DNA of 64,000 nt from Spirochaetia bacterium (GTDB lineage: Bacteria; Spirochaetota; Spirochaetia; SZUA-6; Bin103), in assembly GCA_965208575.1 (NCBI GenBank), contig CBDBOV010000004.1:1248001-1312000 (forward strand), written 5' to 3'. A model generated the notes under the pieces. That model was not told where the DNA came from, ran no database searches, and saw nothing but the letters and a program-made list of their open reading frames with translations. Of the stretch, positions 3,252 through 22,613 are shown in pieces. Both the position numbers and the translations under genes were made by a program. Position 1 is the first letter of the stretch. Each line of letters opens with the position of its first letter.

Positions 3252-3320
3252 GCGGTGAGTGTAACGTATCGGCGCACCGCCCTTGCCCGGCCTATACTCG
3301 GCGCGGGAACTCCGCAGAAG

Positions 3321-4040
3321 ATGGCACACAACGAATCGGACCTTGACGACAGAGGCATAGTCGACGCCCTCTCCGGCGTCACGACCGCAACTTTGACCAC
3401 GCTGCTGCTCAAGAAGGGCCTTCGCAACGTGTGGATGCGCGGCACCGGGCCGCTGCAGCCGGGCCAGCCGCGCGTGGTGGGGCGCGCCTTCACGCTGCGC
3501 TTCGTTCCGGCCCGCGAAGACCTGGCCACCCCGGAGTCGTGGAGTTCGCCGATCTCCACCCGGGCAGCGATCGAGGCGATGCCGGCGGGCTGCGTGGCGG
3601 TGGCCGGTGCCGCGGGCTGCACCGACGCCGGCATCTTCGGCGACATCCTGTGCGCGCGAATCGGCAAGCGCGGCGTGGCCGGGCTGGTGACCGACGGCGT
3701 GGTGCGCGACGGCGCCGGCGTGCAGGCGACCGGGCTGCCGGTGTGGTGTCAGGGAATCGCGGCGCCGCCGTCGGTGGCCGGCCTGACCTTCGTCGGCTGG
3801 CAGGAACCGATCGGCTGCGGCGGCGTGGCGGTGTTTCCGGACGACCTGGTGGTGGCCGACGGCGACGGCGCGGTGGTGATCCCTGCCGCGCTGGTCGACG
3901 AGATGGCAGCCGCCGGGCCGGAGCAGGAGCACCTCGAAGAGTGGATCATGGCAGAGGTGGACGCCGGCGCCGCGCTGCCCGGCCTGTATCCCCCGAACGA
4001 CGCCAACCGCGCCCGCTACGAAGCGTCACGCCGCGGGTAG
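3321..4040 (+). CDS. RraA-family / HMG-aldolase-like protein
   Basis: GRAFTLRFVPARED, GIFGDIL, VTDGVVRD, DLVVADGDG. Confidence 0.88.
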   Translation: MAHNESDLDDRGIVDALSGVTTATLTTLLLKKGLRNVWMRGTGPLQPGQPRVVGRAFTLRFVPAREDLATPESWSSPISTRAAIEAMPAGCVAVAGAAGCTDAGIFGDILCARIGKRGVAGLVTDGVVRDGAGVQATGLPVWCQGIAAPPSVAGLTFVGWQEPIGCGGVAVFPDDLVVADGDGAVVIPAALVDEMAAAGPEQEHLEEWIMAEVDAGAALPGLYPPNDANRARYEASRRG

Positions 4041-16979: not shown

Positions 16980-17057
16980 GGGACCGGTTGCGGTCGCTGG
17001 GACGGCACTACGGCCTACCCGGTGGTGCCGCCCACCGCCAGGGCCTGGATCAAACCG

Positions 17058-17516
17058 TCACGGACCGTCTGATCCGATCTTCCGGATGAGGAAGTCCCCC
17101 TCACTCGATCCCTCGGAGGTAAACGTGACGAACGCGAAAGTCGCACTATGCACGTGTTCGCACTCGTGGGTTCCGGCCCGCCGGTCGTCGAACGTCAGGT
17201 CGCAGGTGACCCTTGAAGCCGCTGAGCCGGAATCCCCGAAGACTATCGAAACGGTGGCGGTGTCGCGGCCATCGCGAGAGTAGGTCCAGTTCCGCGCTCT
17301 GTCGAGGACCGAATTAAGTGCTCTCTCCTTGGACTTGAAGTGGAATTCATCCGAGTGAGCAAGCAAGACGCCCTCCCGTCGATCGTGCGTGAACTCCAGG
17401 GTGTACCCTACGATTGAATCGGGAGCTACCGGCCCGGTGGTAGTTACGGTTACCGAGCAACCGGAGATTAGGACGGCCATTGCGATGTGAGCCAGCCAGA
17501 CGAATCGCTTGTTCAT
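17058..17516 (-). CDS. Hypothetical lipoprotein
   Basis: RBS GGAGGAG; MNKR plus hydrophobic stretch plus lipobox ISGC. Confidence 0.7.
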   Translation of the reverse strand: MNKRFVWLAHIAMAVLISGCSVTVTTTGPVAPDSIVGYTLEFTHDRREGVLLAHSDEFHFKSKERALNSVLDRARNWTYSRDGRDTATVSIVFGDSGSAASRVTCDLTFDDRRAGTHECEHVHSATFAFVTFTSEGSSEGDFLIRKIGSDGP

Positions 17517-17915
17517 GATTCTCCTCCGCAGTCTACGTTCCGCGCGGTGTGAGGCGCGGTCACGAGCATGAACGATCCGCGGCCCACGCTCCATAACGAC
17601 ATGATAGCGGGTTCCACGCAGAATGTCCCGGCGCCGCGGGCCGCTACGCCTCAACTTTCAGCCGGGGGCCAACTGATGCCGTCGCGGCCGGCGAGGTGCC
17701 GTACTTCGCTGGCGACAGGGCGACATGCAAGCGGTGGGTCAGATGGGCGCGGCGGTCGCGTGGCGGGTCGCCCACAGGCGAGTCGAGGTGGATCTGCGGT
17801 TCGAGGCACCACTCGAAGCGCTCGAAGCCACCACGCCGATGGCGGCGCTCCGCCACGGACACACGTACCGCCACGTCCAGCTTGCCCACCAGCGCGGTCT
17901 CCTGAGAAACAACAA

Positions 17916-19304
17916 TCAGGCGGCCTCCGGGACAAGCTCATAACCGAGTGCGTGTGCCTGCCTTCGGAGCCGGCGTTCAAAGCGGCGCCGGTCCTGGCGC
18001 TCCTCGGCGGCGAGGATGCTGTCATCGTAGGCCACGCGATGCGTGATCAGATGGTAGATGATCCGAGCCAGTTTATGCGCGACTGCAGTGGTCGCTTCGG
18101 GAGTACCCAGACGCGCCCGCATGCGGCGGAAGTGCTGGCCCAGGGCCGATGGGCTGCGGTACAACGACTGGGTCGCCCAGTGCAGCGCCTGGGCGGCCCG
18201 ATTGGTGCCCCGACCGGTGTGCGAGCTGATGATCTTGCCGCCGGTGATCTGGTTGTGGGGGCACAGGTGCAGCCAGGAGGCGAATTGCGGTGCGGTCGGA
18301 AAGCGGGACAGTTCCGGGCCGAGTTCGGTGAACAGAACCAGCGCCGTACTTTCGCCGATGCCGGGAATCAGCGTCAGGTCAGTGCCGAACAGGTGCGTAA
18401 GGTGGCCGCGCAGGTCGAACCGCTTGGCCGGTGACTCGGTTGGCGCCTCGGGCTCCGCATCGATTCCCTCATCCGGTGGGTCGTCGCCCACCGCGCCGGG
18501 TGGCTCGCTGCTGGCTTCGAACGCGCGGATGCCGGCTTCGATTTCCTGATCGCACTCCGTGATGAGTTGTTGGTAGTGGGCATAGGTCGCTCGCGCGTGC
18601 CGCAACGCCAACAGGTGCTCGGCGCGCCAGTCGCCCTGCAGCGCCTTGATCAAGGTCTCGCGGCTGGCTTTGATCCGCCGGTCGGCCAGAGCGGCCAACC
18701 GCGCCGGATCCCGCTCACCCGCCAGGATAGCGTCCGTAATGGCCAGACCGGTCGTCCCCGTCAGGTCAGAGATGGCATGGTGCAGATGCACGTTCATCTG
18801 GCTGTACGCCTTCTGCATGTGCAACACGCTGCGCGACGCCATCTTGATCAAGGTGTCGCGATGGCGCAGCACCGAGCGCAGTGCACACACCTCGTCGGCA
18901 GGGCGGAATGAGCCGCGCAGCAATCCCACCGAGTGCAGGTAGCGCAACCACTCGCAGTCGGCCACGTCGGACTTCCGACCGGGTACCGAGTGCACGTGAC
19001 GCGCATTCACCAGCACCACGTCGAAGCCGTGTGCCTCCAGGATCTGATACACCGGAATCCAGTACACACCGGTGGACTCCATCGCCACCGTGGTGACCTC
19101 GCATTCCTTGAGCCAGTCGGCCAAGGCGTGCAGGTCCGCGGTGAACGTAGCAAAGTTCCGGATCGGGTCCGGGTCGCGCTCCGGGCGCACAGCCGCGTAC
19201 ACCTCGGTAGCGCCTATGTCCAAGCCGGCAGCGTCCGGGTGCATCACCTTTGGTTGCGCTGTGCGACTGCCCTTGCCCTTGCGTCTGTGTCTGCGTCGTG
19301 CCAT
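17916..19304 (-). CDS. IS110 DEDD recombinase/transposase
   Basis: GLDIG, AMESTGVYW, RKSDVAD, IPGIG, LCP...TGGK, AVAHKLARIIY; ATG 19304 with RBS GGAGG. Confidence 0.95.
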   Translation of the reverse strand: MARRRHRRKGKGSRTAQPKVMHPDAAGLDIGATEVYAAVRPERDPDPIRNFATFTADLHALADWLKECEVTTVAMESTGVYWIPVYQILEAHGFDVVLVNARHVHSVPGRKSDVADCEWLRYLHSVGLLRGSFRPADEVCALRSVLRHRDTLIKMASRSVLHMQKAYSQMNVHLHHAISDLTGTTGLAITDAILAGERDPARLAALADRRIKASRETLIKALQGDWRAEHLLALRHARATYAHYQQLITECDQEIEAGIRAFEASSEPPGAVGDDPPDEGIDAEPEAPTESPAKRFDLRGHLTHLFGTDLTLIPGIGESTALVLFTELGPELSRFPTAPQFASWLHLCPHNQITGGKIISSHTGRGTNRAAQALHWATQSLYRSPSALGQHFRRMRARLGTPEATTAVAHKLARIIYHLITHRVAYDDSILAAEERQDRRRFERRLRRQAHALGYELVPEAA

Positions 19305-19324
19305 GAAACCTCCGCTACGACTGA

Positions 19325-19508
19325 GTGGTGCGGCCAAGGCGTGTGTAGCAGGTATTCTCCTGAACGGGATGATCGCCACCCGGCCGCGCCGGCTGACAAC
19401 CTCACCAATGACTACGCCACCCGCCCCGGGGCCAAGCTCTTGAACGGGTTCGCAGAACGTAACGCCAGTGACGCGCCGGCCTACTTTCGCGCTCCACCCA
19501 GAACTCTG
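19325..19508 (-). ncRNA. Predicted bridge RNA of IS110 copy 1
   Basis: Two stem-internal-loop units with CCCGT-TCAAGAG (target match) and CCCGT-TCAGGAG (donor match); TATAGT at 19514-19519; ends approximate. Confidence 0.7.
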
Positions 19509-19588
19509 CCCACACTATAGCTCACCCTTGTTTCTTTCATGACTGCGCCGGCCCAGGGGCCGGTGGGATAGCTCCTGAGAAACAACAA

Positions 19589-20977
19589 TCAGGCGGCCTC
19601 CGGGACAAGCTCATAACCGAGTGCGTGTGCCTGCCTTCGGAGCCGGCGTTCAAAGCGGCGCCGGTCCTGGCGCTCCTCGGCGGCGAGGATGCTGTCATCG
19701 TAGGCCACGCGATGCGTGATCAGATGGTAGATGATCCGAGCCAGTTTATGCGCGACTGCAGTGGTCGCTTCGGGAGTACCCAGACGCGCCCGCATGCGGC
19801 GGAAGTGCTGGCCCAGGGCCGATGGGCTGCGGTACAACGACTGGGTCGCCCAGTGCAGCGCCTGGGCGGCCCGATTGGTGCCCCGACCGGTGTGCGAGCT
19901 GATGATCTTGCCGCCGGTGATCTGGTTGTGGGGGCACAGGTGCAGCCAGGAGGCGAATTGCGGTGCGGTCGGAAAGCGGGACAGTTCCGGGCCGAGTTCG
20001 GTGAACAGAACCAGCGCCGTACTTTCGCCGATGCCGGGAATCAGCGTCAGGTCAGTGCCGAACAGGTGCGTAAGGTGGCCGCGCAGGTCGAACCGCTTGG
20101 CCGGTGACTCGGTTGGCGCCTCGGGCTCCGCATCGATTCCCTCATCCGGTGGGTCGTCGCCCACCGCGCCGGGTGGCTCGCTGCTGGCTTCGAACGCGCG
20201 GATGCCGGCTTCGATTTCCTGATCGCACTCCGTGATGAGTTGTTGGTAGTGGGCATAGGTCGCTCGCGCGTGCCGCAACGCCAACAGGTGCTCGGCGCGC
20301 CAGTCGCCCTGCAGCGCCTTGATCAAGGTCTCGCGGCTGGCTTTGATCCGCCGGTCGGCCAGAGCGGCCAACCGCGCCGGATCCCGCTCACCCGCCAGGA
20401 TAGCGTCCGTAATGGCCAGACCGGTCGTCCCCGTCAGGTCAGAGATGGCATGGTGCAGATGCACGTTCATCTGGCTGTACGCCTTCTGCATGTGCAACAC
20501 GCTGCGCGACGCCATCTTGATCAAGGTGTCGCGATGGCGCAGCACCGAGCGCAGTGCACACACCTCGTCGGCAGGGCGGAATGAGCCGCGCAGCAATCCC
20601 ACCGAGTGCAGGTAGCGCAACCACTCGCAGTCGGCCACGTCGGACTTCCGACCGGGTACCGAGTGCACGTGACGCGCATTCACCAGCACCACGTCGAAGC
20701 CGTGTGCCTCCAGGATCTGATACACCGGAATCCAGTACACACCGGTGGACTCCATCGCCACCGTGGTGACCTCGCATTCCTTGAGCCAGTCGGCCAAGGC
20801 GTGCAGGTCCGCGGTGAACGTAGCAAAGTTCCGGATCGGGTCCGGGTCGCGCTCCGGGCGCACAGCCGCGTACACCTCGGTAGCGCCTATGTCCAAGCCG
20901 GCAGCGTCCGGGTGCATCACCTTTGGTTGCGCTGTGCGACTGCCCTTGCCCTTGCGTCTGTGTCTGCGTCGTGCCAT
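19589..20977 (-). CDS. IS110 DEDD recombinase/transposase, copy 2
   Basis: Translation identical to copy 1. Confidence 0.95.
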   Translation of the reverse strand: MARRRHRRKGKGSRTAQPKVMHPDAAGLDIGATEVYAAVRPERDPDPIRNFATFTADLHALADWLKECEVTTVAMESTGVYWIPVYQILEAHGFDVVLVNARHVHSVPGRKSDVADCEWLRYLHSVGLLRGSFRPADEVCALRSVLRHRDTLIKMASRSVLHMQKAYSQMNVHLHHAISDLTGTTGLAITDAILAGERDPARLAALADRRIKASRETLIKALQGDWRAEHLLALRHARATYAHYQQLITECDQEIEAGIRAFEASSEPPGAVGDDPPDEGIDAEPEAPTESPAKRFDLRGHLTHLFGTDLTLIPGIGESTALVLFTELGPELSRFPTAPQFASWLHLCPHNQITGGKIISSHTGRGTNRAAQALHWATQSLYRSPSALGQHFRRMRARLGTPEATTAVAHKLARIIYHLITHRVAYDDSILAAEERQDRRRFERRLRRQAHALGYELVPEAA

Positions 20978-20997
20978 GAAACCTCCGCTACGACTGA

Positions 20998-21181
20998 GTG
21001 GTGCGGCCAAGGCGTGTGTAGCAGGTATTCTCCTGAACGGGATGATCGCCACCCGGCCGCGCCGGCTGACAACCTCACCAATGACTACGCCACCCGCCCC
21101 GGGGCCAAGCTCTTGAACGGGTTCGCAGAACGTAACGCCAGTGACGCGCCGGCCTACTTTCGCGCTCCACCCAGAACTCTG
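20998..21181 (-). ncRNA. Predicted bridge RNA of IS110 copy 2
   Basis: Same sequence as copy 1; guides at 21110-21121 and 21030-21041. Confidence 0.7.
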
Positions 21182-21659
21182 CCCACACTATAGCTCACCC
21201 TTGTTTCTTTCATGACTGCGCCGGCCCAGGGGCCGGTGGGATAGCTCTTGACCGAGTCGGGCCAAGTGCGCCGGCAGCATCACCCGGTCGGCGGGCAGCG
21301 TTTCGTGCCGCCGGTACACGCCGTGCCCGGGCGGCAGCTTGCCGGTCAGCATGCGGGTCACTGTACTAGATCGTCGACCCGCGCGACCACACGATCCGGG
21401 TGCTCACGCTGCAAGGCACCGCATACGTGGAGCATGGCGTCTACATACGGGGCGAAACCGCGACGTCGCCGCTGTTGGCAGGTTTCACGGCCGAGGTGAG
21501 CAGCGTGTTCGACGCACCGACTGTCGGCGCGTAAGGTTCGACAGGCTAACGCGATAGAACCAAGGGCTCGGAGTGCTTGGCAACGGGACGCGCCAAGCTG
21601 GCGAGTGTCCGTGCTCGGTTGACCGTGCGGGGTGGGTTCCATAGGATTGCCGGCATTCC

Positions 21660-22613
21660 ATGGCAGACTCTCCGGCAGCACAGCGCCTGGCCCCGGCGCG
21701 GCAGTCCACGTGGCAGCGCGCCGTGCGCACGCTGCGCAAGGACCGCTACCTCTACCTGATCTTCCTGCTGCCGTTCCTGTACTTCCTCGTGTTCCACTAC
21801 CTGCCGATCTACGGCGTCATCATCGCGTTCAAGAACTACAAGGTGGCGTTCGGCATCTGGGGCTCCAAGTGGGTCGGGCTGCAGTACTTCATCGAGTTCC
21901 TGACCGATCCCTACGCCTGGAAGCTGATCCGCAACACCATGCTGCTGTCGTTCTACAGCATCGTGTTCGGCTTCCCGATACCGATCATCCTGGCGCTGCT
22001 GCTCAACGAGCTGCAGATCTCCTGGTTCAAGCGGGTGGTGCAGACGGTCAGCTACCTGCCGCACTTCATCTCGGTGGTGGTGGTGGCCGGCATGGTGGTG
22101 AACTTCCTGTCCAGCGACGGCCTGGTGAACCGCATCATCGTGGCGCTCGGCGGCGAGTCGTTCCCGTGGCTCATGCAGCCGCGCTGGTTTCCCGGCATCT
22201 ACGTCATCTCCGGCATCTGGCAACACGCCGGCTGGAGTTCGATCATCTACCTGGCCGCCCTGTCGGCGATCGACCCGGAACTGTACGAGGCGGCCACCAT
22301 CGACGGCGCCGGCCGCTTTCAGCAGATGCGCCACATCACCCTGCCCGGCATCGCCCCCACCATCACCATCCTGCTGATCCTGGACCTGGGCCGCATCATG
22401 GCGGTGGGCTGGGAGAAGATCCTGCTGCTGTACACCGGCGCCACCTACGAAACCGCCGACGTGCTGCAGACCTACATCTACCGCCGCGGCCTGGAGGGCG
22501 CCGACTTCAGCTACGCCACCGCGGTGGGCGTGTTCCAGGGGCTGGTGGGCCTGGCGTTCGTGATCGGGGCCAACTACCTGTCGCGCAAGTTCTCGGATAC
22601 CAGCCTGTGGTAA
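21660..22613 (+). CDS. Carbohydrate ABC transporter permease (LplB-like)
   Basis: SYLPHFIS, ELYEAATIDGAGRFQQMRHITLP (EAA loop). Confidence 0.93.
   Translation: MADSPAAQRLAPARQSTWQRAVRTLRKDRYLYLIFLLPFLYFLVFHYLPIYGVIIAFKNYKVAFGIWGSKWVGLQYFIEFLTDPYAWKLIRNTMLLSFYSIVFGFPIPIILALLLNELQISWFKRVVQTVSYLPHFISVVVVAGMVVNFLSSDGLVNRIIVALGGESFPWLMQPRWFPGIYVISGIWQHAGWSSIIYLAALSAIDPELYEAATIDGAGRFQQMRHITLPGIAPTITILLILDLGRIMAVGWEKILLLYTGATYETADVLQTYIYRRGLEGADFSYATAVGVFQGLVGLAFVIGANYLSRKFSDTSLW

Follow-up and report, generated by a model that had tools for sequence, protein, structure and literature searches.

The left end of an insertion sequence of the IS110 family, assembled as a tandem dimer in a 64,000-nucleotide stretch of the genome of a Spirochaetia bacterium (GenBank assembly GCA_965208575.1, contig CBDBOV010000004.1, forward-strand positions 1,248,001 to 1,312,000; this whole stretch is called the window below), very probably encodes a two-loop bridge RNA, or seekRNA, whose loops match the insertion site and the element's own right end. 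The original prediction, made from the letters of the window, had proposed a bridge-like guide RNA in this end, and the proposal is supported here by covariation between the loops and the DNA at the ends of the element, by a structure model, and by the DEDD_Tnp_IS110 and Transposase_20 domains of the transposase. Loop-flank covariation across relatives is what a bridge RNA predicts, and it is found. Such RNA-guided recombinases are already known as a kind; the layout of this one mixes traits of the IS110 and IS1111 groups, and its natural targeting is by half-site.

Positions 17899-21244 of the window, read on the minus strand, hold two head-to-tail units of 1673 bp each (counting the core once) that are 100% identical, so that the tandem dimer claimed earlier is indeed present in the assembly. 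Copy A runs from 19572 to 21244, with borders taken from 14 flanks and from empty sites, and copy B from 17899 to 19571, as given by its identity to copy A and by its flanks. Each unit is made up of a 267-bp non-coding left end, an open reading frame (ORF) of 462 aa, and 17 bp after the stop codon, with the terminus ...TTGTTTCTCAGGAG. The host genome (6.5 Mb, 67% G+C, 6 contigs) contains 15 identical copies of the element at 14 sites, and the element looks recently active on this count. The bridge RNA gene, as delimited by a covariance-model match that includes a closing stem, a target-loop arm and a donor-loop arm, occupies 19306..19516 in copy B and 20979..21189 in copy A, both on the minus strand.

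The evidence that carries this reading is that the sequence of each loop changes along with the DNA that it matches. In the target loop (loop 1), the 3' strand reads UCAAG-AG-CU (19435..19443, minus strand) and comprises a 5-nt left-target guide, an AG core and 2 handshake-like nt; in the donor loop (loop 2), the 3' strand reads UCAGG-AG (19357..19363, minus strand) and equals the final 7 nt of the right end. Both 7-mers lie where they had been predicted, TCAAGAG at 19437-19443 as the match to the target and TCAGGAG at 19357-19363 as the match to the donor right end at the dimer junction, and TCAAGAG is found directly to the left of the element at all 14 insertion sites in the genome. The check that had been proposed, guide-target covariation, was carried out on close relatives, elements with proteins 73-83% identical from five genomes of the same genus and family, and then across all elements with enough sequence. 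In this larger set the loop-1 7-mer of an element finds a match 40-130 nt upstream of its own RNA in 40 of 62 elements, as compared with a mean of 1.55 and a maximum of 9 in 2000 permutations, and the loop-1 guides of other elements match there in only 14 of 3720 pairings. The loop-2 7-mer predicts the right end in 49 of 60 elements (permuted mean 7.9). The loop-1 7-mer thus tracks the left flank and the loop-2 7-mer the right-end terminus, which confirms the earlier placement of the clear guides along the 3' side in both loops.

Individual elements illustrate how closely the two loops follow the DNA. Our element has UCAAGAG in loop 1 and TCAAGAG as its left flank, with UCAGGAG in loop 2 and CTCAGGAG as its right end. 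The elements of two related genomes (G020 and G003) have UGUCAAG in loop 1 and TGTCAAG as the left flank, with UAAGGAG in loop 2 and the right end CTAAGGAG; a third genome (G014) has AGUAAAG in loop 1 and the left flanks AGTAAAG, GCAAAG and GTAAAG, again with UAAGGAG in loop 2 and the right end CTAAGGAG; and a fourth (G005) has UCAGGAG in loop 1 with one mismatch to its left flank TCAGAAG, and UUAGGAG in loop 2 with the right end CTTAGGAG.

The alignment of relatives further defines where each guide begins and ends. The 3' strand of loop 1 consists of CCCG, six variable nt and an invariant AG, and that of loop 2 of CCCG-UU, four variable nt and AG; without exception in the subsets examined (39 and 46 elements), both 3' guides close with AG, and AG also ends the left flank and the right end. 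The CTC/GAG core that had been proposed is therefore too long, since AG alone is invariant; the preceding G serves as a guide position like any other and happens to be common to target and donor in this element. Position -8 of the RNA does not covary with position -8 of the target among relatives, so each 3' guide amounts to 5 nt plus AG.

On the loops' opposite side, where no guides had been assigned with confidence, we find one of 3 nt in the target loop and detect none in the donor loop. The 5' strand of loop 1 consists of six variable nt and then a C and an A that are both conserved. Next to this CA, on its 5' side, lie 3 nt complementary to positions +3 to +1 of the right flank; in our element this strand reads CGU-C-A (19469..19473, minus strand), with a 3-nt guide (+3..+1), the conserved C opposite the core G, and the conserved A. 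Matches summed over 6 positions come to 112 as compared with 74.3 +/- 7.2 in permutations, none of 5000 of which reaches 112 (n=49), in a register that was picked after viewing examples and from which offsets of 1-3 score lower. The anti-diagonal z-scores at right-flank positions +1 to +3 are 2.7, 3.7 and 2.5 (n=48). In the donor loop, a pairing of GGUGGCGUAG with CTATCCCACC, drawn by eye at 9 of 10 positions in our own copy, was dropped because close relatives do not keep it.

A second kind of covariation links the target loop to the element itself. In 39 of 40 cases the nucleotide just after the loop-1 core is the same as the element's first base (0.58 expected), and in 34 of 40 the next one is the same as its second base (0.32 expected); in our own copy UCAAGAG-CU matches the left junction TCAAGAG|CT. 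Only 2 of 14 right flanks start with CT and the dimer junction carries CT as well, so CT belongs to the element and not to the target. In IS621, handshake guides lie just 3' of the 3'-side guide and, once strands have been exchanged, base-pair with the other DNA, according to the part of PMC11208158 used here, and the placement of the two nt after AG in loop 1 matches this, which would make them handshake-like. A second handshake, between the donor-loop nt after the core and the right flank, gave no signal (0.35 vs 0.31).

The structure of the RNA was modelled from seven close relatives, with a covariance model built on the RNAalifold consensus of their sequences, and was then followed into a distant set of 80 loci (proteins 44-58% identical) from a species-level genome collection, whose titles name Acidobacteriota, Cyanobacteria, Proteobacteria and others. 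The model matches 69 of these 80 loci, and in 63 cases its match stops 0-120 nt ahead of that to the transposase; among the 11 loci that it misses are some with little or no upstream sequence. Over 75 distinct sequences, standard pairs fill 88.5% of cells, as compared with 67.5% when shuffled and 33-42% when partners are slid, and two-sided (compensatory) changes occur at 55 of 61 pairs. The consensus is a closing stem followed by two arms, in each of which a basal stem leads to an internal loop, then to an inner stem and finally to an apical hairpin. In arm 1 the inner stem pairs UGG.G(U/C) with (A/G)C.CCG, and in arm 2 it pairs UGG.GA with AUCCCG. The two parallel units that had been described are thus present, although their GTCAYTGG and CCCG repeats are largely strands of these inner helices and not guides. 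As for the stems said to close them, GGCCGG/TTGGCC is a conserved and covarying basal stem of arm 1, whereas GCGGGT/ACCTGC can be drawn here and is not kept in relatives, in which arm 2 is closed by CCGGGGC/GCCUUGG plus GUG/CAC. In addition, an outermost helix forms between UUCUG (19493-19497) and CGGAG (19309-19313; minus strand, coordinates approximate), shows compensatory changes at all 5 pairs in relatives, and overlaps the Shine-Dalgarno sequence GGAGG of the transposase gene; it may couple folding of the RNA to translation of the transposase.

The insertion sites reveal how much of the target is matched in this genome. The 8-mer CTCAAGAG is found to the left of the element at 11 of the 14 sites, and the bases on the right side vary by site. 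TCAAGAG occurs 346 times in the genome, 14 times at occupied sites, 15 times as guide-encoding DNA inside the copies and 317 times free, and set against these free sites the agreement at 14 of 14 insertions exceeds what chance would give. At the dimer, the left target half-site plus core, TCAAG-AG, lies at 21245..21251 (minus strand) and is the 7-mer common to the 14 sites, and the right flank ACCGCG lies at 17893..17898 (minus strand), the only one of the 14 sites that starts with AC, where ACG is predicted. The two flanks of the dimer are contiguous, with 0 bases gained or lost, in four related genomes and at one paralogous site of the same genome, and also, by coordinates, in a fifth genome (G009); the element has therefore inserted without duplication. 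The empty target that had been reconstructed, ctcggTCAAGAG|accgcg, is validated by these contiguous flanks in kin genomes and at the paralogous site, and the empty sites read ...ggctac(c/g)ag|accgcgctggt....

Matching in this genome is limited to the left half-site and core, (C)TCAAGAG. Not one free TCAAGAG in the genome is followed by ACG. A C at target position -8 is enriched, being present at 11 of 14 occupied sites and at 93 of 317 free sites (Fisher 2.9e-4); at this position the RNA has U, and the right end also has C. Several relatives' targets resemble the right ends of sister elements (TTTCT + NNNN + AG). The C at -8 and these right-end-like targets suggest that part of the target site is read by the protein.

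Some further observations concern the site of the dimer. An intact paralog of the sequence that the dimer interrupts lies at G000:C1:381229-381308, corresponding to flanks at 17893-17940 and 21245-21290 of the window. The occupied copy reads TCAAGAG where other copies read CTACCAG or CTACGAG, which indicates that the target was created by local change. The reading frame across the site (..LGYQ|TALVGKLHV..) resembles a many-copy gene family. A stretch of ~170 nt at 21350-21540 of the window has many matches at 70-79% identity in the same genome and in relatives and is a dispersed repeat.

The element also bears the sub-terminal repeats that had been noted on either side of the core, an 8-bp inverted repeat with its right-end arm TTGTTTCT at 19578..19585, 6 nt from the right end, and its left-end arm AGAAACAA at 19528..19535, about 35 nt from the left end (both minus strand). 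Among relatives the two arms change together: 8 of 8 positions match in 14 of 33 pairs taken from the same element, as compared with 16 of 974 foreign pairs. This covariation between the element ends, the overlap of the covarying outermost helix with the GGAGG before the ATG, and the enrichment of C at -8, which goes with no matching change in the RNA, would all fit a structure that is mainly a cis-acting leader of the transposase mRNA and sequesters its Shine-Dalgarno sequence, while the protein picks the site, for example via the subterminal repeats. We regard such an account as highly improbable, because it leaves unexplained the loop 7-mers that change with the left flank and the right end among the elements with 73-83% identical proteins and across the 60-62 elements, and also the handshake-like covariation of 2 nt. 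A leader role and a guide role are not mutually exclusive.

Signals for expression of the bridge RNA are mixed. The hexamer TATAGT (19514..19519, minus strand), which the original prediction had read as a -10 element, lies just upstream of the RNA and is kept in relatives, 36 of 75 having TANNNT at the RNA start as compared with 5 of 75 in a control window, but a consensus scan gives no full promoter around it. Two metatranscriptomes each yielded one contig, from relatives 90-95% identical, that covers the RNA and ends at 19525 or 19507. The contig from one of these RNA libraries (run X1) differs from the window at 19440 and 19442, inside the loop-1 guide, and has TTAGGAG instead of TCAAGAG; the contig from another (run X2) keeps the loop-1 guide of the window.

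Several results weigh against the assignment of a bridge RNA and temper our confidence in it. The promoter and terminator scan passed 0 sigma-70-type promoters and 0 terminators, and the two metatranscriptome contigs are the only signal from RNA libraries, of a kind that cannot prove transcription. The folding check proposed earlier was uninformative, in that a single-sequence fold of the 276 nt at 19300-19575 is no better than shuffles (z -0.43). A scan of 17000-22000 against Rfam returned no relevant family, the sole match at E<=1 being an unrelated one of 21 nt outside the element. The alignment behind the structure statistics was fitted to the model and its sequences are kin, so that these statistics favor the structure and overstate independence. 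A comparison of the 5' side of the donor loop with the element start gave no diagonal in column-wise z-scores, none when counted from the conserved CA with and without wobble, and no excess in the longest complementary run (own 3.31 vs foreign 3.52; with wobble 4.41 vs 4.57). Lastly, 13 of 14 right flanks in the element's own genome do not match the predicted ACG, and no preference in the right flank (C, CG, CT, A or AC at +1/+2) was ever significant in that genome.

The lack of promoters and terminators in the scan and the limits of contigs from RNA libraries also bear on whether the guide might act as single-stranded DNA of the element end, as in IS200/IS605, where subterminal DNA pairs with cleavage sites; covariation of loops with flanks and of helix strands with each other cannot by itself separate RNA from sense-strand DNA. 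There is very little chance, in our judgement, that this is how the element works. Near-invariant G-U pairs (74 of 75 sequences at three positions) assign the fold to the sense strand, the -10-like hexamer just upstream of the RNA is conserved, contigs of relatives from RNA libraries span the region and stop close to its predicted start, and in this recombinase family the RNA is co-purified and required, as reported in those parts of PMC11187229 and PMC11208160 that we drew on. A transcribed bridge RNA that is bound by the recombinase is thus the reading that we favor, with transcription, binding and the chemistry of strand exchange all presumed by analogy.

The transposase gene follows the RNA directly, at 17916..19304 in copy B and 19589-20977 in copy A (minus strand; 462 aa, coordinates including the stop codon), with GGAGG 5 nt before its ATG. 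A longer ORF of 487 aa that would start at a GTG at 19379 was rejected as the gene; it overlaps the RNA, and relatives keep the start MARR at the ATG at 19304. Pfam assigns DEDD_Tnp_IS110 (6.4e-20) and Transposase_20 (1.5e-11) to the protein, and in a phmmer search its C-terminal (Tnp, PF02371) domain, the only significant one, aligns with the IS621 transposase 8wt6 (E 1.3e-7). Thr354 of the protein faces the Ser of the ESG motif of 8wt6, which by the numbering in the available part of PMC11208158 would be the catalytic S241. A rough pattern count over 120 relatives gave Thr in 55, Ser in 39 and another residue in 4 at this place, with 22 unmatched; both residues thus occur within the branch to which the element belongs. 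A homology search returned at least 7993 protein relatives, none of which bears an informative name for the element.

The dimer itself raises the question of whether the assembly can be trusted. Its junction, TCAGGAG|CTATCC, is the same junction of right end and left end (RE-LE) that a circle would carry; the terminus TCAGGAG of copy A (left donor plus core) lies at this junction at 19572..19578, and that of copy B at 17899-17905 (both minus strand). An artefact, in which the assembler had collapsed or expanded what is really one copy, alone or accompanied by circles, would be consistent with the 100% identity of the two units and with the contigs of a public DNA run (X12), which break at the element ends. 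None of these pieces reaches far enough into unique sequence to either side of the junction, and the short ones that cross it carry only 1-2 nt of the next copy, bases common to several ordinary flanks. We nevertheless consider an artefact unlikely, given that head-to-tail neighbors recur at three loci of relatives (L071, L079 and L118) and that a derived form exists in G020; the assignment of the RNA would stand regardless. At the three loci a second RNA gene is found directly after the transposase (L071 3427-3611, L079 1860-2053 and L118 1390-1578), which indicates head-to-tail neighbors, and in L071 one base differs where the second copy begins. Another locus, L023, has an extra RNA gene without a transposase gene (3258-3468) upstream of the element.

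The derived form points to what such a junction may do. In G020 (locus L132, G020:C3:2561200-2563500, ~1930-2160; also L034) a second, left-truncated copy comes after a full one. What it lacks begins at the element start and stops precisely where the loop-1 guide ends, and the right-end terminus ..TAAGGAG runs straight on into CTTGGTCCC.., the sequence next after the guide. From these sequences we infer that the form is a product of a dimer junction recombining with the element's own guide DNA as target. For the dimer in the window, the left half-site may have been used again, or the donor arm may have half-matched at the right end; because its two copies are identical, its origin cannot be told from them.

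Comparison with characterized systems places the element between two groups; the statements made here about IS621 and ISEc11/ISEc21 rest on portions of the texts of PMC11208160, PMC11208158 and PMC11187229. As in IS621 (Durrant et al. 2024, PMC11208160; Hiraizumi et al. 2024, PMC11208158), the left end, lying upstream of a DEDD/Tnp recombinase, encodes an RNA with two internal loops, for target and donor, which in IS621 carry guides on both strands that overlap at a 2-nt core; 2 nt beside one guide pair with the other DNA in a handshake, insertion occurs without duplication, and the core here is CT when read opposite to the transposase strand. The two differ in polarity: in our element the 3' side holds the bottom-strand guide (5+2 nt) and the 5' side the top-strand guide (~3 nt), and IS621 has the reverse. 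They differ as well in the protein (462 aa here, 326-328 aa in IS621, with Thr where IS621 has its catalytic Ser), in the subterminal repeats (8 bp here, 2-3 bp in IS621), and in that no junction promoter is evident here. When read opposite to the transposase strand, the site consists of 3 nt, CT and 5 nt and the RNA is then in the IS621 arrangement, from which we infer, as the simplest description, that with respect to the genes the recombination site has the opposite orientation to that of IS621.

With the IS1111 group (ISEc11, ISPa11 and ISKpn4; Siddiquee et al. 2024, PMC11187229) the element shares a segment complementary to the top strand that lies 5' of the one complementary to the bottom strand, an order found also in the table of a review, PMC13604230, as far as it was available to us. 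It shares as well subterminal inverted repeats of at least 7 bp, the IS1111 hallmark, here of 8 bp within a range of 7-17 bp, and a C-terminal motif with TG where others have SG. The RNA lies upstream here and downstream of the transposase in IS1111, and the protein has 462 aa as compared with 330-350 aa. By the same partly consulted account, an upstream RNA and a longer protein are IS110-group traits, and rare IS1111-type elements with an upstream non-coding region exist, for example ISMtsp17 (PMC11187229). The seekRNA of ISEc21, in the sections of PMC11187229 that describe it, is likewise encoded upstream, with a linear target and insertion without duplication, but its top-strand match lies 3' of the bottom-strand match, as in IS621, and the order here is the opposite. 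Diverse bridge RNA structures are described in what we used of Durrant et al. (PMC11208160).

Two preprints (10.64898/2026.08.31.748434 and 10.64898/2026.08.14.744561) report half-match recombination, in which one arm plus the core suffices, and the duplication in tandem of entire IS110 modules. Their data come from IS621 in vitro and in E. coli and from an assembly survey, whereas the present case is a natural element, in which the left half-site is found at 14 of 14 genomic sites and the match to the right flank never exceeds 2 nt.

Together, these comparisons raise the possibility, which we put forward tentatively and would not yet back over the alternative, that the element represents a widespread and undescribed layout of bridge recombinases, as set against published texts and not their figures or supplements: an RNA in the left end (69 of 80 loci), a turned-round site with a 5+2-nt guide and a 2-nt handshake on the 3' side and ~3 nt on the 5' side, IS1111-type repeats, and natural targeting by a half-site of 7-8 nt. 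If this is true, such half-site targeting would explain the many dispersed insertions, the tandem dimers and the recombination with the element's own guide DNA.

In the mechanism that we propose, a structured RNA of ~200 nt would be made from the 267-bp left end and would fold into a closing stem and two arms with an internal loop each. The 3' strand of the target loop, UCAAG-AG-CU, would pair with the bottom strand, and the recombinase bound to the loops would, by homology with IS621, bring the circular or tandem RE-LE junction together with the target; strand exchange at the AG/CT core would then insert the element without duplication. The homologous IS621 and ISEc21 systems suggest that the RNA would also be programmable.

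Much current effort goes into developing bridge RNAs as programmable recombinases, and what is known of the mechanism comes mostly from IS621. Here the guides, the core, the handshake positions and the natural targets can all be read from one genome, in an element whose polarity and guide lengths differ from those of IS621. It thus offers a second architecture in which to ask what in the mechanism holds generally, what minimum of base pairing is enough in nature, and by what route tandem copies form. For annotators, the finding implies that a 267-bp "non-coding" end is a gene, and that the 7-mer of its loop 1 may predict where the element lands.

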